Source: Candidatus Latescibacterota bacterium (GTDB lineage Bacteria > Latescibacterota > CBDEFO01). Taken from it: a stretch of DNA of 64,000 bases. This document shows, one piece after another, positions 1,394-62,531 of this stretch (the first letter of the stretch is position 1; each line of letters starts with the position of its first letter). A model generated the notes under the pieces. It searched no databases. It was not told where the DNA came from and saw only the letters and a program-made list of their open reading frames with translations. The stretch covers positions 1,696,001 to 1,760,000 of the forward strand of contig OZ252149.1 of the NCBI GenBank assembly GCA_965248755.1. The letters run 5' to 3'. A program made the position numbers and the translations under genes.

Positions 1394-1398
1394 ATAAT

Positions 1399-1719
1399 CC
1401 CGGATGACATCGAGTATCTGTGCTGCAAGTGTCTCGGGACTGACGCCAGCTTATCTTTGATGGGCATAGATCCCGACAATGCCCATGAGATTCCGGCGTT
1501 ATCCAGGCTGGCCAACATCATAAAAGATTATGAAACCCTGCGCCTCTCGAACTATTTTCCAGAATCGGTTAAGGCCAAGCTGAGGGCACCGGGCGAGGAG
1601 TTTACGCTGATGCGGAGTCCACGCGGAAAATACCAGTTCCAGCGCGTTCAGTACGCCAAGCACAAAGTGGAGTGTATGGACATGTGGAGCAACGCCTGGA
1701 AGACCTATAATAGATTCGA
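1399..1719 (+). pseudogene. Passenger fragment of an unrelated gene, truncated at both ends, carried with IS1380
   Basis: Open frame PDDIEYLCCKCLGTD...YNRFD. It begins right after ATAAT (1394-1398) and ends at the IS inverted repeat (1720). Confidence 0.75.
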
Positions 1720-3345
1720 CCGACATTCCCCATATCACATTCATGAGGGATTATATTTCGATACATTCTTGTTTCTGAATTAATATTACCACTTTTACAT
1801 TTTTCAACAAGTACTTTTTTCAATTAAAATAGTATTTTCCTCTGAATTATCACTTTCTTTGTGTTTAAATCCTCCAATTAGAGACACCTCTCCATCGACT
1901 CACAAAAAAATGTGGCAGTTTAAACAGAATAACATCGCAATCGTTCAATCCGGGATAATATTTCGGCAAATAACCTCTTGTCTATCCCAACCTCAGCCAT
2001 TTGAAACGTAATATATCCGCTGTGTCTGACAATCTTCGCTCCGATTTTGATAAATTTCACGAGGAGGCTGCGTAGTGACCAGTGTTTGATTTTCTTCGGA
2101 AGAACAAAACGTCGCAGGAAGTTGCCCAAGTTGTAAGCCAGAACAAACAGCCAGAGCCTCACCTGATTGGAGACGAAACGCTTGCATGAGAGTCGGGTCC
2201 AGTTCAGAGCATACTTGCCCTCCTTAATCCACTGCTCAGCTCTGCCACGGCCATTGTAGAAGTGTACCACGCCTTCTGGCTTGGCGCTCATGTTGGTCAC
2301 GATAAATCCCACTCTTGGGAATAACTCCCCTTGGTGCCATTCAACCTTGGCGACCACTCGCCTCGATTGATCCCAACTGGCCGCTTTATATTGAAATTCA
2401 TATAACGATACAATCGGTTTCCTCGGCGGTCGTCCAACTGGCCGAGTCAGCAGGTATCGTATCTTTTCATAGAGTATCTCATTTGCGGGAAACCGAATGG
2501 CATACAAATAGCCGTTTCCCTCCAGATAATCATAAATCTCAGGCTTTGCGAATGCAGCATCGCCTCGAAAGTATTTCCTATTCTTCTTGCTCTCGTATCT
2601 CTTGACGATCGGTTCCAGAACTTCCTTCCAACGATCAGCACTGTGAACATTACCAGAGCGAAGTAGGACTCCTTCACAATCCCCGAACTGATTGAAGCAG
2701 AACACTGGATGAAAACAGGTACATCCGAAATGACCGTTGTAAGCTGATCCTTCCTGCTGGCCATGTACCGGACTCTCCGAACTGTCCATGTCCAGAATGA
2801 TTCGTTGATGCTGTGTTTTACTCATCGCTTTTTGAACCCACTTGCCATTGATATCTGACAAGTTTCTGAGATTGTCATGCTGAGTCAGTATATCAGTTTC
2901 AAAACGTCCTATCGTGTTGGAGCTGGCAGCTTGCCTGCCTTTGTCCTTCTTTCCGGTAATCGCTCGCATGACGGGATCAACGGATAATCGCTCGGCGTCA
3001 TTTACATCTTCATATCCTGCAAGACGGCTGTATATCGATTGACGCAGGAGAGTAGATATATCATGTTGGATATTACGGCCTGTGCGTTTATCGGTAAAAA
3101 CCGCTGATACCGAATCAAATAATCCCAGTGCGTAATCAAGGTCACGATACGCAAGAAGTCCACCGTTTGATGTCACCTTTGCACCATGAAATTCAAGCTT
3201 TATTCCTCCATCAAAACCTACTTTCATTCTTTCACCCTCTGGATGATCAATATTTATCCGCCATTTATGAGTCTTATTTATTGTAATATAACATGTTCTG
3301 GCGACTTTGACAACCATTTTTCGGGTCTAATATGGCGAATGGGGG
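1720..3345 (-). mobile_element. IS1380-family insertion sequence, copy 1 (1626 bp)
   Basis: Imperfect terminal IRs: CCGACATTCCCCATAT (1720) vs CCCCCATTCGCCATAT (reverse complement, from 3345). Matches 60820-62445 with one visible substitution. Confidence 0.93.
1920..3317 (-). CDS. IS1380-family DDE transposase (likely true start ATG 3227)
   Basis: KLEFHG..TSNGGLL, GYEDVND, LDMDSS, FRGDAAF and YNGRGRAEQWIKEGK motifs. Confidence 0.95.
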   Translation of the reverse strand: MVVKVARTCYITINKTHKWRINIDHPEGERMKVGFDGGIKLEFHGAKVTSNGGLLAYRDLDYALGLFDSVSAVFTDKRTGRNIQHDISTLLRQSIYSRLAGYEDVNDAERLSVDPVMRAITGKKDKGRQAASSNTIGRFETDILTQHDNLRNLSDINGKWVQKAMSKTQHQRIILDMDSSESPVHGQQEGSAYNGHFGCTCFHPVFCFNQFGDCEGVLLRSGNVHSADRWKEVLEPIVKRYESKKNRKYFRGDAAFAKPEIYDYLEGNGYLYAIRFPANEILYEKIRYLLTRPVGRPPRKPIVSLYEFQYKAASWDQSRRVVAKVEWHQGELFPRVGFIVTNMSAKPEGVVHFYNGRGRAEQWIKEGKYALNWTRLSCKRFVSNQVRLWLFVLAYNLGNFLRRFVLPKKIKHWSLRSLLVKFIKIGAKIVRHSGYITFQMAEVGIDKRLFAEILSRIERLRCYSV

Positions 3346-3543
3346 ATAATAACTCACGTATAGATACTCATCGTCCCATAAGAGCTTTGTTACGGTCTGT
3401 TCCTTTTCACCTTGCTTATGCCAGGGAAACTTAAAGTCCCCCACGCTCTTGCAAGCCTTCCAATCCTCTTCATCCAGGACGCCGTCTATTCTTATTGGGG
3501 CGTTCGCTCTTTTTATCACATATTTGGTAAGATCGTTACCCAT
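3346..3543 (-). pseudogene. CBM9-like gene, 5' part (66 codons)
   Basis: PIRIDGVLDEEDWK...TVTKLLWDDEYLYVSYY, then runs into the IS end. Confidence 0.85.
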
Positions 3544-37974: not shown

Positions 37975-39273
37975 TTAAAGATCCTCCACCCTTATAATCT
38001 GTATTTGATCTTTGATAATATCCAAGGTATTCAATCTCTCAACAGCCCGGCATACAAATTTTTCTTTAGCTTCGTGGGTCATAATAACCAGCGGCACGTT
38101 TCCCTGGGACTCAGCTCTGCCTTTCTGTATAACTGAAGCTATACTTATCTTTTCATCGGAAAAGACGGCAGCTATTTGCGCCAGAACTCCTGGCCTATCG
38201 ACAACCAAGAATCTGAAATAATAGGGGATTTCTACTTCGTCTATGGGGATCACAGAGGGTCCATCGCACACCGTCATCTCCCGGACTTTGGGATCTGCTC
38301 TATCTATAAGTCTTTGGGAAAGCTCCACGATATCTGAGATAACTGCGCTGGCTGTGGGCATGCGGCCTGCTCCGCTCCCGTAGAAGACCTGCGTTCCGAC
38401 GGCATCTCCCACGACTTCTACCGCGTTGAAGACCCCTTTGATCTGCGCCATGATACTACCTGATGGGACCATAGCAGGATGAACTCTAACTTCTATTGTG
38501 TCCTTCGATCCTTTGGCGATTGCCAGAAGCTTTACCGTGTAACCCAGCTCCCTTGCATATTCGATGTCCTGTATCTTTATCTTCTGTATGCCTTCTTTGA
38601 ACACATCCCTAGTCTTGAGAGCCGATCCGAAGGCGATTCTGGAGAGAACAGCAAGCTTCTGGGCGGCATCTGTTCCGTCCACATCCATCGTAGGATCAGA
38701 TTCGGCGTAGCCCAACTTCTGGGCCTCGGCAAGCACATCCTCAAAGTCACCTCCCTCATCTGTCATCTTTGTAAGGATGTAGTTAGTGGTCCCATTAAGT
38801 ATCCCATACATAGAGCTTACATTGTTAGCTACAAGCCCATTTTTCAAAGAGCGGATGATAGGGATACCGCCGCCTACGCTGGCTTCGAAGAGGAGGTCAA
38901 CACCGTTTTTTAGAGCTGCTTCAAAGAGTTCGTCTCCACAGTCCGCAAGCAGAGCTTTATTAGCTGTAACGACGTTCTTGCCATTCCTTATCGCCTTGAG
39001 AATAAAGCTCCGCGCAGGCTCTATTCCCCCTATAAGCTCAGCGACGATGTCTATAGTGGGATCATTCACAACCTGGGAAACATCCTCTGTCAAAAGATCC
39101 TCTGGAACTTGTATATCTCTTTTTTTGGATAGGCTTTTGACAGCGACCTTAACAAGTTCTAAGCTCAGGCGTTTTCTTTCAAGAAGAGACGATGGTCCCT
39201 TTACAAGGAGTTCAACTACACCCCCACCTACGTTTCCCATTCCGATTACGCCTATCTTGATATTTCTACTCAT
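37975..39273 (-). CDS. hom: Homoserine dehydrogenase with ACT domain
   Basis: [24 protein letters not shown] and NGTTNYIL. Confidence 0.95.
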
Positions 39274-39800
39274 AACTAGAAAAGAACAAAATTGAAGAAT
39301 TCCTCTCTATACTGAGAGATGATAAACAAACGCCCAATATAAGTATAAGTAAATATATTAAATATATGCCGACGGCGCAACTTAAAATCTAAAGATTATA
39401 GGATATACAAAAAAAATTCCCATATGGTGATATTCATCACATCTATCGTCTATACGATTGGTTAAATTATACACAAAAATGTGCGCCGGTAGACTCGGGA
39501 CATATTGCCCAAGACCTGCAAGCATTGGTTCAAAAAACGACAACTATTGTTGAAAAATTAGTACTACTTTTTGGCGGCCCTGTCACGCGATCTGTTTTCT
39601 AACGTCTGCTGAGAGAGCAACTTCGCGACAAAAAGGTGGCGAAAGATGCACAAAATGATGCGGAAATGCATAAAATTCTAATTTTTTCACCTATAATTTA
39701 AATTTCCTATTGACTTTTTCAGATAATATATTACATTTAGCAGTGTTTCTCGTAAACAGACTATCCATAGCAGGAGTTACCCTTTTAAGCTTGGGGGGGT

Positions 39801-40799
39801 ATGATGGTAAAATTGTTAGCATGTGTGGCAGTTGCCGTGTTACTGATGTTTTGTGTGGATGCATATGCAGTGAATCCGTCTCCGTCTCCGTCTCCGTCCC
39901 CTGAGCCAGGGCCTCTTTTCGGTGATGTGAGCAAGAACGGTGTTATAACAGCTTTCGATGCGGCTTTGGTTTTACAGCATGTAGTTGGAATTATCCAGTT
40001 GACAGGTGAGGAGTTGATCTCTGCTGATGTGTCGGGTGACGGCACAGTATCTGCATTTGACGCAACCCTCATCCTTCAGTTTGTGGTTGAGATAAGGTCC
40101 AGATTCCCTGTGGAGGGCGGTCCTGTGCCCAAGCTACTCGGCAGCCAGGAGCGCACTATAACTGTTGGGAGAGCCGAATACATAACCCAAAATATGTTAT
40201 CGCTCCCGATCTTAATAGACGAGATGAGCGGAGTTTTGGCGGGGTACATGGAGTTGTTGCTTAAGGGGCAGATGGACAATATACAGGTCTCCACGGCGAA
40301 TATGACTGAGGAATATCTGATAGTCAGCAACGTTTCAGACGATGTGATCCAAATAGCGTTTGCGGGAACAGTCGCTCCTGAGGGTAAGGGAGAGGTGCTC
40401 CGCATCCAGTTCAGGGCACAAGATTTATTTGATTTAGGATTGGAGGTGCTTGAGGCACAGTTGAACGAGGGGATGTACCGCTTGAGTATAGTGGAGCAAG
40501 AGGACATATCCCCACCGCCTCAAGAATACAGCCTGGCTCAGAGCTATCCGAATCCGTTTAACCCTTATACAACTATAAGATACGAAATACGGGAAGCAGG
40601 AAGAGCAAGGCTAGATGTATTTAACACTTTAGGGCAGAAGATCAGGACACTGGTGAATGAGAATCAGAAAGCAGGAAGGTATTCTGTAGTCTGGGACAGC
40701 AAAGACGATCAGGGGAAGGACATGGCAAGCGGACTTTACCTCTATCGCATCAAGGCAGGGGACTTTGTTAAGACCAGAAAGATGATCCTGATGAGATAA
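39801..40799 (+). CDS. Secreted protein: PS linker, dockerin, cohesin-like domain and FlgD-Ig/T9SS-like C-terminal domain
   Basis: GDVSKNGVITAFDAALVLQ...ADVSGDGTVSAFDATLILQ; YSLAQSYPNPFNP...SGLYLYRI...KMILMR. Confidence 0.85.
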   Translation: MMVKLLACVAVAVLLMFCVDAYAVNPSPSPSPSPEPGPLFGDVSKNGVITAFDAALVLQHVVGIIQLTGEELISADVSGDGTVSAFDATLILQFVVEIRSRFPVEGGPVPKLLGSQERTITVGRAEYITQNMLSLPILIDEMSGVLAGYMELLLKGQMDNIQVSTANMTEEYLIVSNVSDDVIQIAFAGTVAPEGKGEVLRIQFRAQDLFDLGLEVLEAQLNEGMYRLSIVEQEDISPPPQEYSLAQSYPNPFNPYTTIRYEIREAGRARLDVFNTLGQKIRTLVNENQKAGRYSVVWDSKDDQGKDMASGLYLYRIKAGDFVKTRKMILMR

Positions 40800-52386: not shown

Positions 52387-54261
52387 ATGCCGGCCTATCA
52401 CCGTAAGATTCTGCATGCGAACCTGTCCTCTGGCACTACGTGGATCGAAGAGCCCAAAGAGGAGATATATCGGCGCTACTTGGGCGGAAGCGCCATGTGC
52501 GGATACTTCCTTTTGAGGGACTTGAAGCCGGGCGTCGATCCGCTGGGTCCGGACAACATTTTAGTGTTCTGCACGAGCATTATAAACGGGACAAGCATAT
52601 CAGGGGCTAACAGATTCAGCGCGGCCGCCAAGTCCCCATTGACGGGAGGATACGGCGAAGCTGAGGCCGGCGGCTGGTGGGGACCCGAGCTTAAAGCCGC
52701 AGGGTTCGACGGCATAATCGTAGAAGGCAAGTCCGATACACCCGTCTATATATGGGTGCACGACGGCCAAGTGGAGATAAGGGACGCGAACAAATACTGG
52801 GGAAAGATCTCGGGAGAAGTCCAGGACGCCCTCGAAGAAGAACTTGAGGACAAAAGAATCAGGGTCCTTCAGACCGGAATAGCGGGGGAGAATCTGGTCC
52901 GCTTTGCCGCTATTGTGAATCAGCTCAAGCACTTCAACGGGAGATCAGGACTGGGTGCTGTGATGGGATCAAAGAAGCTGAAAGCTATCGTGGTGCGGGG
53001 CAAGGACAGGATGGAGGCTGTGGATAAGGATCAGGCAAAGGGAGTGTTCACCTGGTTCAAGGAGAACTACGACAGAGACGGCGACATGTTACATGTGCTG
53101 GGTACAGCCAGAGGTGTGCGGGTGCTCGATGCGGAAGGCATTTTGCCGACTCGCAATTTCCATGACGGTTCCTTCGAACTAGCAGCTGAGATAAGCGGAC
53201 AGAAGATGAAAGAGACCATACTCACCAAGACTGGAACCTGCTACGCCTGCGCTGTCGCCTGTAAGAGGGAGGTAGATGTCCCCGAACTCGGCGTGACATC
53301 CAAGTATGGGGGCCCCGAATACGAGACCATATCTGCTACCGGTTCTCTGTGCGGCGTGGGTGATCTGAAGTCCATAGCCCTGGGCAACCAGATGCTTGCT
53401 CAGTACGTCCTCGACTCCATTTCAACTGGAGCGACGATAGCCTTCGCCATGGAATGCTACGAAAAAGGGCTGATCGGCATGGAGGATACAGGTGGGGTTG
53501 AGCTCACGTTCGGCAATAAGGACGCAGTGATAAAGATGATCGAGATGATCGCAAAAAGACAGAAGATAGGCGATACTTTGGCAGAGGGCGTGGCGCGAGC
53601 CGCCGAGATAATCGGAAAGGGAGCATCCGAATTTGCGCTTCACGTCAAGGGTCAGGAACTCCCCATGCACGAGCCGAGAGGTAAAAGGAGTCTGGCGCTT
53701 GCCTATTCGACCTCTCCGACAGGTGCCGACCACATGGAGGCTCCACACGATCCGTTCTACGAATCCTTCGATCCCTCCGGTATTAATCCTATGTCTCCTC
53801 TGGGTTTGATAGAGCCTGTGGATCGCATGGACCTGGGACCCAAGAAGGTCAAAGCGTTCTACTACACTCAGCAGGTGTGGAGCCTGTACAATTCAGTGGG
53901 CATGTGCGATTTTGTCGGCGCTCCGATAAATTCTTTGGAACTGGATCAGTTGAAGAAATACATAGATGCAGTGACAGGATGGAACACGAGCCTCTGGGAA
54001 CTTTTAAAGGTGGGTGAGCGCGCAGGGACATTAGCTCGCATCTTCAACTACTGCGAGGGTTTCACAGCAGAGGACGACACCCTTCCCGATCGGCTTTTCG
54101 AGCCTCTTGAGAACGGAACGTTGAAAGGAGAAAAGATAGACAGAGAGGAGTTTGAAAAGGCAAAGAGGACGTACTATCAGATGGCGGGATGGGATTCCGA
54201 TACAGGCTTCCCGGTGCCGGCGAAGTTAGCCGAATTGGATCTGGAGTGGGCTGTATCGTAG
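52387..54261 (+). CDS. Aldehyde:ferredoxin oxidoreductase family protein
   Basis: KSPLTGG, GRSGLGAVMGSKKLKA, CYACAVAC, GPEYET and DDTLPDR. Confidence 0.93.
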   Translation: MPAYHRKILHANLSSGTTWIEEPKEEIYRRYLGGSAMCGYFLLRDLKPGVDPLGPDNILVFCTSIINGTSISGANRFSAAAKSPLTGGYGEAEAGGWWGPELKAAGFDGIIVEGKSDTPVYIWVHDGQVEIRDANKYWGKISGEVQDALEEELEDKRIRVLQTGIAGENLVRFAAIVNQLKHFNGRSGLGAVMGSKKLKAIVVRGKDRMEAVDKDQAKGVFTWFKENYDRDGDMLHVLGTARGVRVLDAEGILPTRNFHDGSFELAAEISGQKMKETILTKTGTCYACAVACKREVDVPELGVTSKYGGPEYETISATGSLCGVGDLKSIALGNQMLAQYVLDSISTGATIAFAMECYEKGLIGMEDTGGVELTFGNKDAVIKMIEMIAKRQKIGDTLAEGVARAAEIIGKGASEFALHVKGQELPMHEPRGKRSLALAYSTSPTGADHMEAPHDPFYESFDPSGINPMSPLGLIEPVDRMDLGPKKVKAFYYTQQVWSLYNSVGMCDFVGAPINSLELDQLKKYIDAVTGWNTSLWELLKVGERAGTLARIFNYCEGFTAEDDTLPDRLFEPLENGTLKGEKIDREEFEKAKRTYYQMAGWDSDTGFPVPAKLAELDLEWAVS

Positions 54262-54467
54262 AGGAACTGTCAGAGATAGATAATACTCAGAGTGCTGATG
54301 TGGAAGCTCCAACTAATGGTGAGATTCCCCCAAAATACACAAGGGAGCAATAGGAGTCAATGACAGAGACTCAAAGGACGCTACGAATGTACAAGTGGAA
54401 GAATGAAGGTCAGCAAAAGGTTGTATAAATCAGCATAGACGCCTCAACATCGATCCTTGAATACTCA

Positions 54468-54496
54468 GCCCGTCAGCAATGGCGGGCTTTCTTTTT
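54468..54496 (+). terminator. Intrinsic terminator
   Basis: AGCCCGTCA-GCAA-TGGCGGGCT followed by TTCTTTT. Confidence 0.75.
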
Positions 54497-54654
54497 ATCC
54501 ATTCTCGCACAGGATCGCTTTATCAGCCTCCTCAAAAGATAGATTGGTGAATTTATATCTTGAAACTTTCATCCCCCCCAAGTGGTCGGCTCGGTCAAAG
54601 TAGTCCCTCCGTTATATTCCCAGCAGTAATCAAGTCTCTGCTGGTAGATGTCCA

Positions 54655-54837
54655 CTACTGGAAATCAGTAAAGACCAGTATATTCTCCTCATTTCTCTCC
54701 TCCGTACTCTTTGACCAGTTGAAGGATCCAGTTATCAAGACCTTCCTGCCAATGATACAAATCTTATTGTGCATAAGCCCAGCGTGCTGGTCTAATATCA
54801 CGCTTAAACCTTTCTCTATCAGATACTCATCTTCAGA
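54655..54837 (-). pseudogene. C-terminal fragment of a PLD-family (Nuc-like) nuclease
   Basis: Hand translation GLMHNKICIIGRKVLITGSFNWSKSTEERNEENIL: degenerate HKD plus GSxN. Confidence 0.7.
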
Positions 54838-55762
54838 ACAATTCCTTCTCTATCAATTTTAGGTATCTGTTGCCGTAAATCATATCCGGTTCATGTTTGG
54901 TTGGTCGTACTCTGATTTCAAATTGAGGGTTCTCTACATTACTATTGTCGAATAGGACTAATCCTATACCGAAAATCAGACATAGAGAGTCCAGTCTTGA
55001 GATGTCATCCTGAGATGAGTTCTTGGGGATTACTATATGACATTTATGACTGAACAACCTATATGAGCAAGTCTGCCCAAACGCTGTAATCAAATCTCTA
55101 GCATCCGCTTTTATCTCCGCTGAAATAACTTCAGTGGGGACCGTGATAATATCACTTTTGCGTGGCTCTCGTATTCCTATAACATCAGGAGTTCCCCATT
55201 TGCCCTTGAATTTGTTACCTCCCAAAGCTATTGCCTTAGTACATTCCTCCAATTCGTCAACAAGCCAACCTGCAAAAGGCTTGTAAAAATCTTCTTCTTT
55301 TATTCTTTCAGAATTTCCCTTACCATTCTCAACTTCTAACACCAGTATATCTCCCTGATATACAAATTGTTCAAGTAATATCCGGGCATTGTCAATAGCT
55401 TTTGTTCTACTTGTGTTGGCTTCGATATATAACCCATTAGATAGTTTCCTAGGACTTGTGAAACCTCTATGAGCGTGTTCAGGACCTGTATTTATTAAAT
55501 ATCTCTTTCCTCTTCCAACACGGATTGGACAGTCGCTTTCCTTAAGTTTCCTCTCCTTAATGAGCCATTCTGCAGTGCTCACAAGAATCTCATATGCATA
55601 TTTGATTTCATAATTGTCGTTGCCAATTTTTATCTTTTCCAAGTGAATGCCCTTCCTTTCATCTGCCTCAGGTAGCGCCTGATTATCTCTTAGCTGATTT
55701 TAACAAGCACGGCAGATCTTTGCTGTATCCTCATTCTCTTGCCCGCATTTCGGACAGTACAT
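54833..55762 (-). pseudogene. Zinc-ribbon plus putative PD-(D/E)xK nuclease-like protein; 5' end damaged, intact ORF 54833-55642
   Basis: ATG 55762 gives MYCPKCG/(frameshift)[13 protein letters not shown], in frame with the 269-aa ORF, which has TPDVIG...SAEIK...GQTCSY. Confidence 0.6.
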
Positions 55763-56031
55763 ATTTACCTCACGCATTAGCAGACTGGATGGAATATACA
55801 ACTAATTAAGACAGCATCTGTCACAGTCTCAACAACGCTACGTTATTTACCTGCTAAGTATTTCTACAGGGAATCTGATGGATTAGGTACTTACGTAAAT
55901 TGTAGGGTAATCAGAGGGAAGATACAAAAGAAAAGGGTGGATGTCAATTACTTTGTGGGATAATTATTACTGGTGACTATATAGTGTCCATAGCCAGTCG
56001 AAGGCTAAATTAAGCCATATAACACTATAAT

Positions 56032-57172
56032 CGTCTATTACACTCGCGGCAATTTCTTTTCGCGAGTATCCGAATTCCGCGTGTCTGGCGATACTAATGT
56101 CGCTGATGTAGAAAGCGAACGCGTCCTGTGGGAGGTGTCACAGCCGGCGACGAATCACAACGGAGGTCAGCTCGCCTTCGGGCCGGATGGAATGCTCTAT
56201 GTCGGTCTTGGAGACGGAGGAGGAGGAGGGGACACATTCCGGAACGGTCAGGATCCCACTACCTGGTTGGCGGCGATTCTGCGCATCGACGTTGATGCTC
56301 GCACGGCAGGCCTCGAGTACGGTATCCCGCCTGACAATCCGTTTGTCGGCAACAGTCAAGATTGGCGTGAAGAGATCTGGGCATACGGCCTGCGCAACCC
56401 CTGGCGCTTCAGCTTCGACAGGAAAGGCGGTCAGCTGTGGACGGGAGACGTCGGGCAGAATAGGTGGGAAGAGATCGATCTCATCGAAAAGGGAGCCAAC
56501 TACGGCTGGAATAGGATGGAGGGATTTCACTGCTTCTCTCCTCAAACCAACTGCGACACCGTCGGCCTTGCCCTGCCTTTGTTCGAGTACGATCACAGCG
56601 TGGGAGCCTCCCTCACCGGCGGCTACGTCTACCGCGCCGCCCGTCTCGGCGGGCTATATGGTGTGTACATCTACGGCGATTTCATAACCAAGAAAATCTG
56701 GGGTCTGCGCTACGAAGAGGGTGAGGTGCGCTCCAACAACCTGATCGCCACCTGTCCGTCGAACATCACTAGCTTCGGCGAAGACGAGAGCGGGGAGGTT
56801 TACATCGTGGGATTCGATGGGCCGATCTACCTCTTGGAACTCCTGCCGGGTGAGATGCCGACCGCCGTTCTATCGGTAGAGAGCGAGCTGCCCCAGGCCG
56901 ACGCGCTATACCAGAACTACCCCAATCCGTTCAATCCCTCGACCACGATTTCATTCACGGTGGCAGCGCGCGGTTCGGTCGAACTCAGCGTCTTCGACCT
57001 TCTCGGCCGTCGGGTACGGATACTCACCGAAGGACCAAGATCAGCAGGGCAACACACAGTCGTCTGGGATGGCACCGACGAGAATGAACGAACGGTCGGG
57101 TCCGGCATTTACGTCTACCGGATTCGCATCGCTGACTTCGTGCAGACGCGCAAAATGGTGCTGGTCAAGTAG
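56032..57172 (+). pseudogene. 5'-truncated PQQ-dependent sugar dehydrogenase (sGDH/GSDH family) with FlgD-Ig C-terminal domain
   Basis: Begins mid-protein at VYYTRGNFFSRVSEF; has NHNGGQLAFGPDG, YGLRNPWR and NYPNPFNP. No signal peptide or first blades. Confidence 0.85.
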
Positions 57173-57183
57173 GGGGGACCATC

Positions 57184-59163
57184 ATGACTAAGGCATGGAA
57201 TTTTCTGTCGTATATGATCTCGACTCTTTGCATGGTGGGTATGATTGTCTCTGCAGTGAAGGCCGACGAGATTGGAGAATGGAGGTCGTACGGTTCGGAC
57301 AAAGCCAGTTCCAAATACATCCCGCTCGATCAAATCAAGGTGGACAGTGCGGTGAATCTCCGCATTGCGTGGCGTTGGAGCTCCGTTGACAATGAAATCC
57401 TCCGAGCCAACCCTGAACTATGGACTATGGTAAACGAAGCGACCCCGCTTATGATCGATGGGGTCATTTACACGAGCACCTCGCTAGGTCTGGTAGCCGC
57501 CATTGACGCTGTTACAGGGCGGACGATCTGGGTTTATGATCCGCAAACCTACGTGGACGGATCCCCAGCCAACGTGGGTTTCGTGCATCGCGGGGTCTCC
57601 TACTGGGAGGATGGTGATGATCAGCGAATCATCTACGGCACGGGTGATGCGTATTTGATCGCCCTCAACGCAAAGACGGGGAAGCCAATACCAGAATTTG
57701 GTGAGGATGGCAGAATCGATCTGACCCAGGGTTTGCGCCGGCCGGTCGAAAGGGCGCTCTACGCTGTCACTTCACCGCCTGCTATCTGTCGCGATGTGGT
57801 CGTCGTCGGTTCTACCGTGCTGGATGCCTTTGCAGTCGGGAAAATGCCGCAAAAGGTGATGCCGCCGGGCGATGTGAGAGGATTTGATGCGCGCACCGGC
57901 CAGAAGCGCTGGCTATTCCAGTCTATCCCCCAAGAGGGAGAGTTTGGAAACGAAACGTGGGAGAATGGATCCTGGAAAACTACGGGCAATACGAATGTAT
58001 GGACGATGATGAGCTCTGACGAGGAGTTGGGTTACGTATATCTGCCCTTCAGTACTCCTACCAATGACTTTTATGGCGGGAATCGTCATGGAGATAACCT
58101 CTTTGCCGAAAGCCTGGTATGCCTGAATGCGGAAACCGGCGAGAGGGTCTGGCACTTCCAGATACTACATCACGGAATCTGGGATTACGATCTTCCGGCT
58201 GCCCCGAATCTAATCGACATCACAGTTGATGGCGAAAGAATCAAGGCGGTTGCCCAGGTGACCAAACAGGGGTTCTGTTACGTGTTCGACCGCGTTACAG
58301 GAGAACCCGTCTGGCCCATTGAGGAGCGCCCGGTGCCGCAATCGGACGTACCCGGGGAGCAAACATCGCCCACCCAACCCTTTCCAACCAGGCCGTTGCC
58401 CTTCGAACGGCAGGGGTTGACCCACGACGACCTGATCGACTTCACTCCTGAATTACGTCAGCGGGCTATCAATATCATTGAAAGGTACGAGTATGGGCCT
58501 CTCTTTACGCCTCCCTCGGAAAAGGGTACGATAGCCCTGCCCGGCATAATAGGCGGGTCCAGCTGGGCCGGAGCAGCCGTCGATCCCGAAAGGGGTATTA
58601 TCTATATTCCATCCTATACATATCCGGCAATTGTGACCCTGAGCAAATCAGAAGACTCGGCCTCTGACTATTCCTATACTGGAACTGTAGAATTCGGACC
58701 GGAAGGCCCGCAGGGACTTCCCCTAATTAAACCCCCGTACGGGCGTATTACAGCCATAGATTTGAATACGGGTGAGCATCTTTGGGTACGTCCGGTCGGC
58801 GATGGGCCAAAAGATCATCCCGCACTGCAACACCTGAACCTCCCGCCGCTTGGAAGGGCGTATCGCAGTTTTCCTCTTCTGACGAAATCGCTGCTCTTCG
58901 CCGCCCTGCAGGCAGAATGGAGCGTACGAGGCAATTCACCTCGAGGGAACGCGATTGAAGTTGAATTCGAAAACAGAGAGGCTTTCCTGTGGGCGTTTGA
59001 CCCTGAAGACGGAACCCCGATCGCCAAAACGGCGCTTCCTGGGAATGCGTCAGGGGCTCCGATCACCTATATGGCGGATGGCAGGCAGTTCATCGTCATT
59101 CCGCTAGGAGGAGCCTCTCAGCCAGCAGAACTTATCGCGCTGAGCTTGCCGTTCCCCGATTGA
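57184..59163 (+). CDS. PQQ-dependent glucose/quinate-type dehydrogenase, secreted
   Basis: EATPL, HRGVSYW, GDVRGFDARTG, HHGIWDYD and KPPYGRI. Confidence 0.92.
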   Translation: MTKAWNFLSYMISTLCMVGMIVSAVKADEIGEWRSYGSDKASSKYIPLDQIKVDSAVNLRIAWRWSSVDNEILRANPELWTMVNEATPLMIDGVIYTSTSLGLVAAIDAVTGRTIWVYDPQTYVDGSPANVGFVHRGVSYWEDGDDQRIIYGTGDAYLIALNAKTGKPIPEFGEDGRIDLTQGLRRPVERALYAVTSPPAICRDVVVVGSTVLDAFAVGKMPQKVMPPGDVRGFDARTGQKRWLFQSIPQEGEFGNETWENGSWKTTGNTNVWTMMSSDEELGYVYLPFSTPTNDFYGGNRHGDNLFAESLVCLNAETGERVWHFQILHHGIWDYDLPAAPNLIDITVDGERIKAVAQVTKQGFCYVFDRVTGEPVWPIEERPVPQSDVPGEQTSPTQPFPTRPLPFERQGLTHDDLIDFTPELRQRAINIIERYEYGPLFTPPSEKGTIALPGIIGGSSWAGAAVDPERGIIYIPSYTYPAIVTLSKSEDSASDYSYTGTVEFGPEGPQGLPLIKPPYGRITAIDLNTGEHLWVRPVGDGPKDHPALQHLNLPPLGRAYRSFPLLTKSLLFAALQAEWSVRGNSPRGNAIEVEFENREAFLWAFDPEDGTPIAKTALPGNASGAPITYMADGRQFIVIPLGGASQPAELIALSLPFPD

Positions 59164-59379
59164 ATCTATCGGGGGTCAACCTGACAATCAGCTTCGCGCT
59201 TGCCGTTGATCTTTCTCGTTGCCATTAGTCTGAGTCAGAACAGACACCAGGCAAGAGGGAATCCAGATGTCAGGACAGTTAAGGAAGGAGACGGAGGCGC
59301 CTCTCACCCTCTGTATGCAGGATAGTATTATTGAACTCTCTGATCTTGTCCAGACCATTTTGACCCTATACTTGTAATA

Positions 59380-59470
59380 CCAAGTCGCTCTGGTGACGGG
59401 CGGAAGCTGAGGAATTGGCCGAGCATCTACACTTGCATTAGCCACGGAAAGATCGAAAGCCATATCTGGA
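59380..59470 (+). pseudogene. Tiny SDR N-terminal remnant
   Basis: QVALVTGGS*GIGRAST. Confidence 0.5.
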
Positions 59471-59531
59471 GATTTTTGGTCGAAAGGTGGAAGCTTGAAC
59501 CTACATTAGGTTCCTGGAGATTCCTGGCAGC

Positions 59532-60503
59532 TTAACAGCACCCTCCACCTGGATAGTGATATGTAGAACCTGTCACATTAATCTCCTGTTTATCCAAGGT
59601 TTCAAACCACCTTGCCGTCTTGTCACATACCTGGAAGGGAATATCTCTCATCACTATGTGACCCTTGCCGTCGTCAAAGCACTCATCATCCCCTGTATAT
59701 ATCACGGTCCTCCCCGTAAATACACACGCTCCGTCTGGCGGTATGGGATCGTTGTACGCCGCCAACTCCACTGTCTCCAAGAGAATATCCTCGTCCAGAT
59801 CGTATCTGCGACTGTCCAACATTCTGTAAGGACGCCTCCCTCTTATCTCCAGCGTCCCGAATCCAGTCTGGACAATGCGCTCAATATACTCATCGAACAA
59901 CAGGGCACCCGAAAGACACATAGCCCTTAATCGCTCATCCATCTTAAGGTGATCAGGTATCGGCTTTTGCGACACAGGATCGGATATAATGAGCTTTCCG
60001 CCCATCTTCAAGGCGCGCCTTATCTCCACCAGAGCTGTCATCAGGTCGCTTTCGGTAAATATATTAAATAAACAGTTTTGCGCAGCTATGTCCACAGATC
60101 TGTCCGGTAGGGGCAGACTCAGAGCGTCCCCCTCCATCAGAGTCACAAACGATGGATCGAACCAATCGTTTTCGAGGGCGGCTATGTGGAGGTTCCGCTC
60201 CGCTACCTCCAACATCTCAGGCACACTGTCTACCGCTATGACCGATCCCGGACGCCTCGTAAAATACGCAAACTGTAGCGCTTCCATTCCTCCCCCGACA
60301 CCGACATAGAGAATATCCATATCAGAACTCAAGTCCTGAATATGCACAGTCGTCCCGCACCCGTAGTTCATCTCAATCATCTCTTTGGGAATAGAAAGCC
60401 CCGGAAGCTCATAGCCAGAGCCGGTCGAACAGCAAAGCCCCGGTTGTGGTTCTAACGCCGCATCTTTGTAGAGTTCCCTCGTCGTCTCCAAGTAACTCAT
60501 CAT
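59532..60503 (-). CDS. arsM: Arsenite methyltransferase, arsenosugar-biosynthesis type
   Basis: GLCC, MNYGCG, YVGVGGGME, AQNCLFN, CLSGAL, VCDKTA and terminal GGGCC. Confidence 0.85.
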   Translation of the reverse strand: MMSYLETTRELYKDAALEPQPGLCCSTGSGYELPGLSIPKEMIEMNYGCGTTVHIQDLSSDMDILYVGVGGGMEALQFAYFTRRPGSVIAVDSVPEMLEVAERNLHIAALENDWFDPSFVTLMEGDALSLPLPDRSVDIAAQNCLFNIFTESDLMTALVEIRRALKMGGKLIISDPVSQKPIPDHLKMDERLRAMCLSGALLFDEYIERIVQTGFGTLEIRGRRPYRMLDSRRYDLDEDILLETVELAAYNDPIPPDGACVFTGRTVIYTGDDECFDDGKGHIVMRDIPFQVCDKTARWFETLDKQEINVTGSTYHYPGGGCC

Positions 60504-60553
60504 ATGTCTCCTTTGGGTTTTCTTAACTTAAAAAACCTGCGTTAGACTACTAC

Positions 60554-60808
60554 TAACCCGATTAATTCATAAGCTTGGTGGAGTCATTGCGAGGAGCAAA
60601 GCGGTCCCCGATTGAGTCTACCGGGGAAGCAATCTCAAGGTTTTATAGTGGTCTCCTATGAGAGCCGGAGAGTATTACATCTACCACAGAATCGAGATTT
60701 CTTCGCCTTCGGCTCGCAATGACACCGAAGGCCTTAAACAGCATAACTATAATATAATACAATCCCTTAATTAATACACGTCCTTTTTGTGTGAATTATT
60801 TGGGCTAA
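60554..60808. mobile_element. MITE-like element, copy 2 (with extra 21-bp palindrome)
   Basis: Close copy of 28173-28408 with the same terminal IRs. Confidence 0.75.
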
Positions 60809-60819
60809 AATACATTCAT

Positions 60820-62445
60820 CCGACATTCCCCATATCACATTCATGAGGGATTATATTTCGATACATTCTTGTTTCTGAATTAATATTACCACTTTTACAT
60901 TTTTCAACAAGTACTTTTTTCAATTAAAATAGTATTTTCCTCTGAATTATCACTTTCTTTGTGTTTAAATCCTCCAATTAGAGACACCTCTCCATCGACT
61001 CACAAAAAAATGTGGCAGTTTAAACAGAATAACATCGCAATCGTTCAATCCGGGATAATATTTCGGCAAATAACCTCTTGTCTATCCCAACCTCAGCCAT
61101 TTGAAACGTAATATATCCGCTGTGTCTGACAATCTTCGCTCCGATTTTGATAAATTTCACGAGGAGGCTGCGTAGTGACCAGTGTTTGATTTTCTTCGGA
61201 AGAACAAAACGTCGCAGGAAGTTGCCCAAGTTGTAAGCCAGAACAAACAGCCAGAGCCTCACCTGATTGGAGACGAAACGCTTGCATGAGAGTCGGGTCC
61301 AGTTCAGAGCATACTTGCCCTCCTTAATCCACTGCTCAGCTCTGCCACGGCCATTGTAGAAGTGTACCACGCCTTCTGGCTTGGCGCTCATGTTGGTCAC
61401 GATAAATCCCACTCTTGGGAATAACTCCCCTTGGTGCCATTCAACCTTGGCGACCACTCGCCTCGATTGATCCCAACTGGCCGCTTTATATTGAAATTCA
61501 TATAACGATACAATCGGTTTCCTCGGCGGTCGTCCAACTGGCCGAGTCAGCAGGTATCGTATCTTTTCATAGAGTATCTCATTTGCGGGAAGCCGAATGG
61601 CATACAAATAGCCGTTTCCCTCCAGATAATCATAAATCTCAGGCTTTGCGAATGCAGCATCGCCTCGAAAGTATTTCCTATTCTTCTTGCTCTCGTATCT
61701 CTTGACGATCGGTTCCAGAACTTCCTTCCAACGATCAGCACTGTGAACATTACCAGAGCGAAGTAGGACTCCTTCACAATCCCCGAACTGATTGAAGCAG
61801 AACACTGGATGAAAACAGGTACATCCGAAATGACCGTTGTAAGCTGATCCTTCCTGCTGGCCATGTACCGGACTCTCCGAACTGTCCATGTCCAGAATGA
61901 TTCGTTGATGCTGTGTTTTACTCATCGCTTTTTGAACCCACTTGCCATTGATATCTGACAAGTTTCTGAGATTGTCATGCTGAGTCAGTATATCAGTTTC
62001 AAAACGTCCTATCGTGTTGGAGCTGGCAGCTTGCCTGCCTTTGTCCTTCTTTCCGGTAATCGCTCGCATGACGGGATCAACGGATAATCGCTCGGCGTCA
62101 TTTACATCTTCATATCCTGCAAGACGGCTGTATATCGATTGACGCAGGAGAGTAGATATATCATGTTGGATATTACGGCCTGTGCGTTTATCGGTAAAAA
62201 CCGCTGATACCGAATCAAATAATCCCAGTGCGTAATCAAGGTCACGATACGCAAGAAGTCCACCGTTTGATGTCACCTTTGCACCATGAAATTCAAGCTT
62301 TATTCCTCCATCAAAACCTACTTTCATTCTTTCACCCTCTGGATGATCAATATTTATCCGCCATTTATGAGTCTTATTTATTGTAATATAACATGTTCTG
62401 GCGACTTTGACAACCATTTTTCGGGTCTAATATGGCGAATGGGGG
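60820..62445 (-). mobile_element. IS1380-family insertion sequence, copy 2
   Basis: Near-identical to 1720-3345 (offset 59100). Confidence 0.93.
61020..62417 (-). CDS. IS1380-family transposase
   Basis: Identical to copy 1 except IRLPANE vs IRFPANE. Confidence 0.95.
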   Translation of the reverse strand: MVVKVARTCYITINKTHKWRINIDHPEGERMKVGFDGGIKLEFHGAKVTSNGGLLAYRDLDYALGLFDSVSAVFTDKRTGRNIQHDISTLLRQSIYSRLAGYEDVNDAERLSVDPVMRAITGKKDKGRQAASSNTIGRFETDILTQHDNLRNLSDINGKWVQKAMSKTQHQRIILDMDSSESPVHGQQEGSAYNGHFGCTCFHPVFCFNQFGDCEGVLLRSGNVHSADRWKEVLEPIVKRYESKKNRKYFRGDAAFAKPEIYDYLEGNGYLYAIRLPANEILYEKIRYLLTRPVGRPPRKPIVSLYEFQYKAASWDQSRRVVAKVEWHQGELFPRVGFIVTNMSAKPEGVVHFYNGRGRAEQWIKEGKYALNWTRLSCKRFVSNQVRLWLFVLAYNLGNFLRRFVLPKKIKHWSLRSLLVKFIKIGAKIVRHSGYITFQMAEVGIDKRLFAEILSRIERLRCYSV

Positions 62446-62531
62446 ATAATAATACGTAGATGTGATAAAGTTAAGTAAATATTGGGTCTTATCGTGTATA
62501 TAGTTGTTTAATAGTGCTTTCGGAGTAATGG

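Follow-up and report, generated by a model that had tools for sequence, protein, structure and literature searches.

One-ended transposition of an IS1247-like element as the highly probable origin of a duplicated arsM and dehydrogenase segment in a Latescibacterota chromosome

The window, i.e., the whole 64,000-nt stretch of DNA that was analysed, is contained in the single contig of the host genome (G000) and carries, at 56032-62445, a 6414-bp unit that consists of an IS1380-family element and 4788 bp of DNA on its right side. One-ended transposition by this IS1247-like IS1380 element almost certainly explains the unit. Every base of 56032-62445 (6414/6414) is identical to G000 3297816-3291403, a locus 1.53 Mb away on the same chromosome, where the dehydrogenase gene that is truncated in the window forms an intact 490-aa ORF. 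At the donor, the IS copy is bracketed by a 5-bp duplication of its own, ATGAA; the right-hand repeat was carried along into the window copy (60815-60819, reading TTCAT in the window and ATGAA in IS orientation), which sets the direction of copying as donor to window. The original prediction, made from the letters of the window, had proposed a search for an intact dehydrogenase gene with the same cargo next to another IS copy; this arrangement was found in G000 itself.

Junctions, donor and empty sites

As had been read from the sequence, the IS copy of the window has no duplication at its own ends, its flanks being unlike (TTCAT at 60815-60819 vs. ATAAT at 62446-62450). The target duplication instead flanks the IS left end (ATAAT, 62446-62450) and the distal end of the cargo (ATAAT, 56027-56031). 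The base after the latter copy starts in the middle of a gene (donor frame ...LFYVYYTR; window frame stop-IKPYNTIIVYYTR), and GC content rises from 0.40 in 55001-56000 to 0.57 in 56001-57000, so that both reading frame and base composition agree with the original prediction, which had placed the switch from AT-rich DNA into a dehydrogenase gene at exactly this point. Its caution that a 5-bp match is weak was justified: within the 10 kb to the left of the right end there are 13 occurrences of ATAAT, and the pentamer by itself proves nothing. The match is more than chance because identity with the donor ends exactly at 56032 (4788 bp, then ATAAT) and because a single ATAAT joins the flanks in a congener. 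The target ATAAT lies in AT-rich intergenic DNA on the downstream side of a cysK-like gene. Cargo lies on the right-end (3′) side only, as had been claimed, and is accompanied by one IS copy; a composite transposon was rejected, since the distal end of the cargo has no IS copy. At that end, the substitute (secondary) right end of the unit (56032-56038, inward CGTCTAT) has an A6-T7 core and resembles the inverted repeat weakly, with 6/16 matches to the true right end, a score that ~2% of random sites reach.

Both sites are found unoccupied in G001, the one congener genome used for comparison (~96% identical in shared genes). At the target, the sequences on either side of 56027-62450 adjoin each other across a single ATAAT, which is the empty site that the original prediction had called for, and nothing of 56032-60819 is present there; at the donor locus, the cargo is present with no IS1380 copy and with a single ATGAA. 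Two other studies likewise yield an empty target with contiguous flanks: contigs of 16.5 and 13 kb, from runs X5 and X6, join 55995 to 62446 with 31 diverged letters between them, the length of 55996-56026. The identical donor and the empty sites together bear out the earlier proposal that a one-ended event had moved the truncated dehydrogenase gene, the PQQ dehydrogenase gene, arsM and a MITE. Since G001 has the cargo without the IS at the orthologous site, at 96% identity, the cargo duplicates genes native to the chromosome and is not foreign DNA, and horizontal acquisition was rejected.

Two other differences between these genomes concern neighbouring DNA. Window 52498-55790 contains a second aldehyde:ferredoxin oxidoreductase gene and ORFs (54560-55642) without counterpart at the matching G001 site, where ~1.35 kb of different sequence is found instead; for part of 54833-55303, G000 730800 holds an 83% paralogue. 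Between the PQQ gene and arsM, G001 carries a different IS-like element of 1.5 kb (L013 47-1447); this extra segment was considered as a candidate arsS and rejected, as it encodes a 466-aa transposase-like ORF.

Contigs from 4 of 11 listed runs were compared with the window. Run X1 showed no differences from the window in long pieces, and its contig depth, which is not a copy number, was 7.9-11.1 over the cargo vs. 7.7-8.8 over the flanks (i.e., not doubled) and ~295 over the IS, roughly 35 times the flanks vs. 47 genome copies. The window duplication may be absent from some cells, i.e., not fixed in the population. That donor-only and donor-plus-copy chromosomes coexist, with the assembly having taken the filled allele of a real event, is suggested by the undoubled cargo depth and by the IS depth below 47-fold, but we consider it rather unlikely: an X1 contig (55106-56061) crosses the target site into the cargo at flank depth, with no break at 56031 (30 letters lie inside the cargo, one short of the bridging rule), and none of the joints listed for X1 corresponds to an empty site. 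Rare variants are lost from contigs, and depth is a poor guide. A mixed population leaves the mechanism of one-ended transposition unchanged.

Cargo genes and the insertion sequence

The cargo begins with a 5′-truncated gene of the glucose/sorbosone dehydrogenase family (56032-57172, plus strand; PF07995 with a FlgD-Ig tail), which, compared with the 490-aa donor gene, is missing the first 332 nt (~111 codons) and with them the hydrophobic N-terminus. No ATG, GTG or TTG occurs from the upstream stop to the junction, and this copy is probably a pseudogene. It is followed by an intact PQQ-dependent dehydrogenase gene (57184-59163, plus strand, 659 aa; PF01011, 657 bits), the second gene of the donor operon, whose window copy is cut off from the upstream operon start. 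Truncated and PQQ-dependent dehydrogenases had both been recognized in the original prediction; its labels "sGDH" and "PQQ-GDH" hold at the family level only, and the names are kept at that level here, because the matches are to PF07995 and PF01011 and fall below the TIGR03606 and TIGR03074 cut-offs. At the donor locus (L001 12677-16596), a tandem pair of sorbosone-dehydrogenase paralogues (490 and 738 aa), both with FlgD/T9SS-like tails, shows 93% identity over 818 bp, and a third family member lies upstream.

An intact arsenite methyltransferase gene encoding an arsenosugar-type ArsM follows on the minus strand (59532-60503; NF038099, 512 bits vs. a cut-off of 400), and a second copy of arsM sits at the donor site. 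A partner arsS gene is absent from the genome as judged by a whole-genome search with TIGR04167, which we take to be the model for ArsS-linked radical-SAM proteins: the best match reached 57 bits vs. a cut-off of 300. The MITE-like repeat next to it (60554-60809, ~256 bp; 41 genomic matches of at least 200 bp) is a passive passenger, since it was already at the donor locus in G001. A 21-nt palindromic REP-like repeat occurs between genes and inside the MITE (window 4047, 5504, 12650, 36649, 41185, 41410, 48598, 59154 and 60606). The event duplicated native genes and shows no sign of selection.

The IS itself (60820-62445, minus strand, 1626 bp; right end 60820-60835, left end 62430-62445) has boundaries set by 48 full-length copies in G000, and its termini, CCCCCATT.. 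and CCGACATT.., are short imperfect inverted repeats beginning with CC. Its 465-aa DDE transposase (61020-62417, minus strand; NF033539, 385.5 bits vs. a cut-off of 180; PF13701, E 2e-128) is ~55% identical to the transposases of IS1247 and ISKpn23, the closest named relatives in the plasmid collection, where the best matches are below 60%. Transposase type, length, terminal repeats and AT-rich target duplication all fit the IS1380 family, to which the element is assigned on sequence grounds as a member distinct from IS1247. Within the IS right end, a promoter-like site (TTCAGA-18-TATAAT; 60879-60850, minus strand) that matches the consensus would point outward to arsM; it is one of six sites found vs. 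2.2 expected by chance, and is present in both copies. An internal CCCGGATT at window 61040-61056, in left-end orientation and ~235 bp from the right end, could give short non-autonomous derivatives. Several right-end-only IS fragments occur in the genome.

Capture across the chromosome and the choice of ends

The course of events proposed for the window unit has two steps. In the first, documented at the donor locus, the IS inserted upstream of arsM at genome position 3291403, with duplication of ATGAA. In the second, for which the enzymology is conjectural, the transposase would have brought the true left end into synapsis with a mimic of the right end, a degenerate look-alike 4788 bp past the true right end and inside the dehydrogenase gene, and the 6414-bp unit would have been inserted, presumably via a staggered 5-bp cut, at the intergenic ATAAT, duplicating it. 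The donor stayed intact, with arsM and the PQQ dehydrogenase gene duplicated and the sorbosone-dehydrogenase copy truncated. The products of the event, its direction and polarity, and the persistence of its source are directly observed. Flanks and synteny are kept at both sites, which makes an intramolecular cointegrate unlikely, as its outcome would be an inversion or deletion of the intervening DNA. DDE pathways that fit the data are copy-out/paste-in and cut-and-paste from a replicated sister chromatid.

A genome-wide census covered 47 copies of the IS that are at least 99.9% identical, with one 93% copy and one partial copy in a 7.2-kb terminal overlap left out, and yielded 17 simple insertions, 25 copies with right-side cargo and five assigned to neither class. 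Among the simple copies the duplication is 5 bp in 15, 6 bp in one and 4 bp in one, and targets of the 47 copies are 80% A+T. In the 25 units the left-side target sequence recurs at the distal limit of the cargo, at precisely the point where identity with the source copy stops (24 units) or where synteny with G001 resumes (one unit). Cargo spans 58-5734 bp and ~36 kb in all (including 612 bp). One-ended transposition made at least 25 of the 47 copies, more than half. Source sites persist for 24/25 units, and six donors keep their own target duplication. Polarity is strict, with 16/16 donor-daughter pairs tested sharing at most 4 bases on the left side. Five cargo-bearing or unclassified copies acted as sources again, giving nested captures (e.g., 186 -> 274 and 186 -> 1177 bp). 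Together with 186 bp from a neighbouring gene, the IS behaves as a new 1812-bp element with 8 insertions and 8 different target duplications; the source of the extension is G000 755330, and its eight daughters include 167860, 890965 and 4062898. Because repeated use of the donor and spread of the extended element are both possible, these eight copies were counted as one end.

A sister unit lies in the same window (1394-3350, minus strand), with an IS at 1720-3345, 321 bp of cargo (1399-1719), ATAAT at 1394-1398 and 3346-3350, and its donor at G000 921841; at this donor, 11 bases that match the true right end exactly are found 8 bp past the used end, and yet the CCCGGAT end was chosen. Elsewhere in G000, a second IS copy (4-bp duplication) is nested in the 2780-bp cargo of a unit (3746991-3753000), and two units 7.9 kb apart in opposite orientation (2703516 and 2711395) have the same left flank and the duplication CTGAC, their common position in another repeated element being a possible hot spot. 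Synteny with G001 assigned one of six open copies (3849774); 1274927, 2982012, 3782900, 834366 and 3959959 stayed outside both classes after this comparison. Copy 3959959 has native flanks that lack ~500 bp compared with G001, which suggests a possible IS-adjacent deletion, and 834366 has 189 bp exactly, then at 93%, in common with three others. For 3782900, the top-scoring candidate end, 14540 bp away, was not accepted because it falls inside another IS copy. A SNP at IS position 121, at which three donors differ from most of their daughters, is a probable polishing artefact and was unused in the analysis. The untrimmed terminal overlap of the contig (7.2 kb) is 99.9% identical, and at window 39000-40000 the GC skew changes sign and gene orientation flips, so that this segment could lie near the replication origin or terminus.

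Eighteen distinct substitute ends were available for comparison. Read inward, position 6 is A in 18/18 and position 7 is T in 15/18 and A in 3/18; position 2 is C or G in 17/18, position 3 C or T in 16/18 and position 4 A or G in 15/18, and position 1 is C (i.e., a terminal G) in only 10/18. The binomial p for A6 is 8e-11 for the first 17 ends, with the position picked post hoc from 20; the 18th end was placed on separate grounds, namely, G001 synteny, and is the best-scoring of 23 target-duplication candidates within 20 kb. A matrix built from 17 substitute ends gives 5.0 for the true right end, 6.0 for the left end and 8.6 for the 186-bp end, which is itself in the training set and begins with CCCGGATTT, a start shared by left ends of related elements from two other genomes. 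The right end thus seems to require just a ~7-bp core, C-S-Y-R-G-A-W, with A6 invariant, and with so short a core substitute ends would be common. For the window unit, the end that was used is weak, its score being equalled or exceeded by 95 sites in the cargo, so that sequence alone leaves its choice unexplained and the choice of end appears loose and partly stochastic. A weaker right end may go with more read-through, a lead drawn from few, non-independent loci. No genome-wide census or substitute-end logo was found in the open-access papers searched.

In the host phylum, 10 of 151 genomes searched match the IS at E 1e-100. Among 78 related loci found, the 35 examined came from genomes with several copies; the right end was recognizable in 27, and 13 of these 27 have their own target duplication, the absence of which at related loci can have other causes. 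Clear substitute-end or capture events occur at three loci: L077 (~310 bp of cargo, duplication CTAGA, end with A6-T7), L053 (end inside the IS, duplication TTTAT, A6-T7) and L101 (>5.7 kb of the flank of L102 inherited). These events indicate that capture behaviour is common to the subgroup and not peculiar to G000.

It is possible, although we lean towards doubting it, that capture is the main mode of transposition in this IS1247-like lineage, and not an error, with the element serving as a genome-wide engine of segmental duplication. Its own right end, CCGACAT, would on such a reading be a mediocre fit to the preference of the transposase (C-S-Y-R-G-A-W with an obligatory A6; best CCCGGAT, as in related elements), and would therefore lead to read-through in ~60% of resolved events, with donors kept and cargo snowballing over generations; a fortuitous near-perfect end 186 bp outside a donor would have generated the 1812-bp element and its 8 insertions.

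The census also bears on the origin of the window unit. Selection of the duplication for higher arsenic methylation, through arsM dosage and an outward promoter of the IS, is improbable. The gene is intact, its upstream region is kept and it lies downstream of the promoter-like site in the IS right end, an arrangement analogous to resistance genes behind ISEcp1 as described in PMC9330008; however, the 24 other units hold arbitrary fragments (58-5734 bp, often broken genes), this donor has one daughter only, no sequence change has accumulated, the genome has no TIGR04167 (arsS-type) gene above the cut-off, and neutral accumulation in an IS burst explains the unit. Hardly any credence can be given to a repeat-induced misjoin that duplicated the donor segment beside an IS copy in the assembly: 47 near-identical repeats, the terminal overlap in the contig and the undoubled depth might favour it, but it would yield neither a pentamer duplication matching the single empty-site pentamer of the congener nor a break at an A6-T7 end motif, let alone 25 times, and the left junction, at which non-repetitive DNA is joined to mid-gene DNA, is seen in the independently assembled X1 contig. 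Just as implausible is a history in which, after a simple IS insertion, the right flank of the donor was imported by homologous recombination or gene conversion between IS copies. Many identical copies offer substrates for this, and 834366 may be an instance, but recombination needs distal homology (there is none at 56032), would be symmetric (left flanks are never carried) and would not place a target pentamer at the distal limit of the cargo; the distal duplication and the empty site contradict it.

Relation to known transposable modules

The mechanism is one-ended transposition of the ISEcp1/IS1247 type ("transposable module"), already known from antibiotic-resistance elements. Transposable modules of ISPme1 and IS1247a have been described (PMC9330008, PMC3281130), IS1247 being 1672 bp long with a 16/13 IR (PMC3281130). 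Like these modules, the units described here combine a single IS with DNA of variable length at its 3′ end, 16-bp imperfect inverted repeats and 5-bp direct repeats, and they share non-resistance cargo and an apparently retained donor; the promoter-like site of the right end would correspond to the outward promoter of the modules (PMC9330008, PMC3281130). Unlike those trap-plasmid captures, the present set is a natural chromosomal census of 25 units and 18 ends. In PMC9330008, transposition pathway and donor fate are stated as unknown for transposable modules.

For ISEcp1, too, one-ended transposition is described that involves imperfect right ends and 5-bp repeats (PMC12589106), including a 36-kb unit and, for ISEcp1B, substitute ends with 3-12 identical bases and a terminal G suggested to be crucial (PMC12116815). 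The blaCTX-M units of ISEcp1 (ISEc9) likewise pair a left end with an imperfect substitute right end, have a 5-bp target duplication and gain downstream genes stepwise (PMC12589106, PMC12116815), and the ISEcp1 left end also has A-T at inward positions 6-7 (PMC12116815). In contrast to ISEcp1B as presented there, a terminal G is not general among the ends found here and A6 is invariant; the one ISEc9 substitute end printed in PMC12116815 has no A at position 6, and the A6 rule may therefore be subgroup-specific. Unlike ISEcp1 units, those in G000 show no evident resistance selection. ISKpn23, which captures genes such as aac(3)-IIId in TnCF1, resembles the present element in transposase sequence (~55% identity), and in single-copy mobilization of adjacent chromosomal DNA from environmental bacteria, and its IS-borne promoter may have a counterpart in the promoter-like site described here; for ISKpn23 the donor intermediate was not found, whereas here donor, daughter and both empty sites are at hand (PMC13423793).

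Taken alone, the unit exemplifies a known gene-capture mechanism in an ordinary, very clean form, and adds just a second copy of native genes. Its value lies in the setting, namely, one closed chromosome with 25 datable units, their sources and no evident drug selection. The census provides a natural read-out of the substitute ends that the transposase accepts (A6 in every one) and shows sources persisting; it adds a testable end rule and data on donor persistence. With no intramolecular cointegrate outcome in this chromosome, it narrows the question of pathway and donor fate, yet cannot settle it. If capture is indeed the main mode of transposition in this lineage, the element would be a good system for studying how ends are recognized in the IS1380 family and what becomes of the donor.
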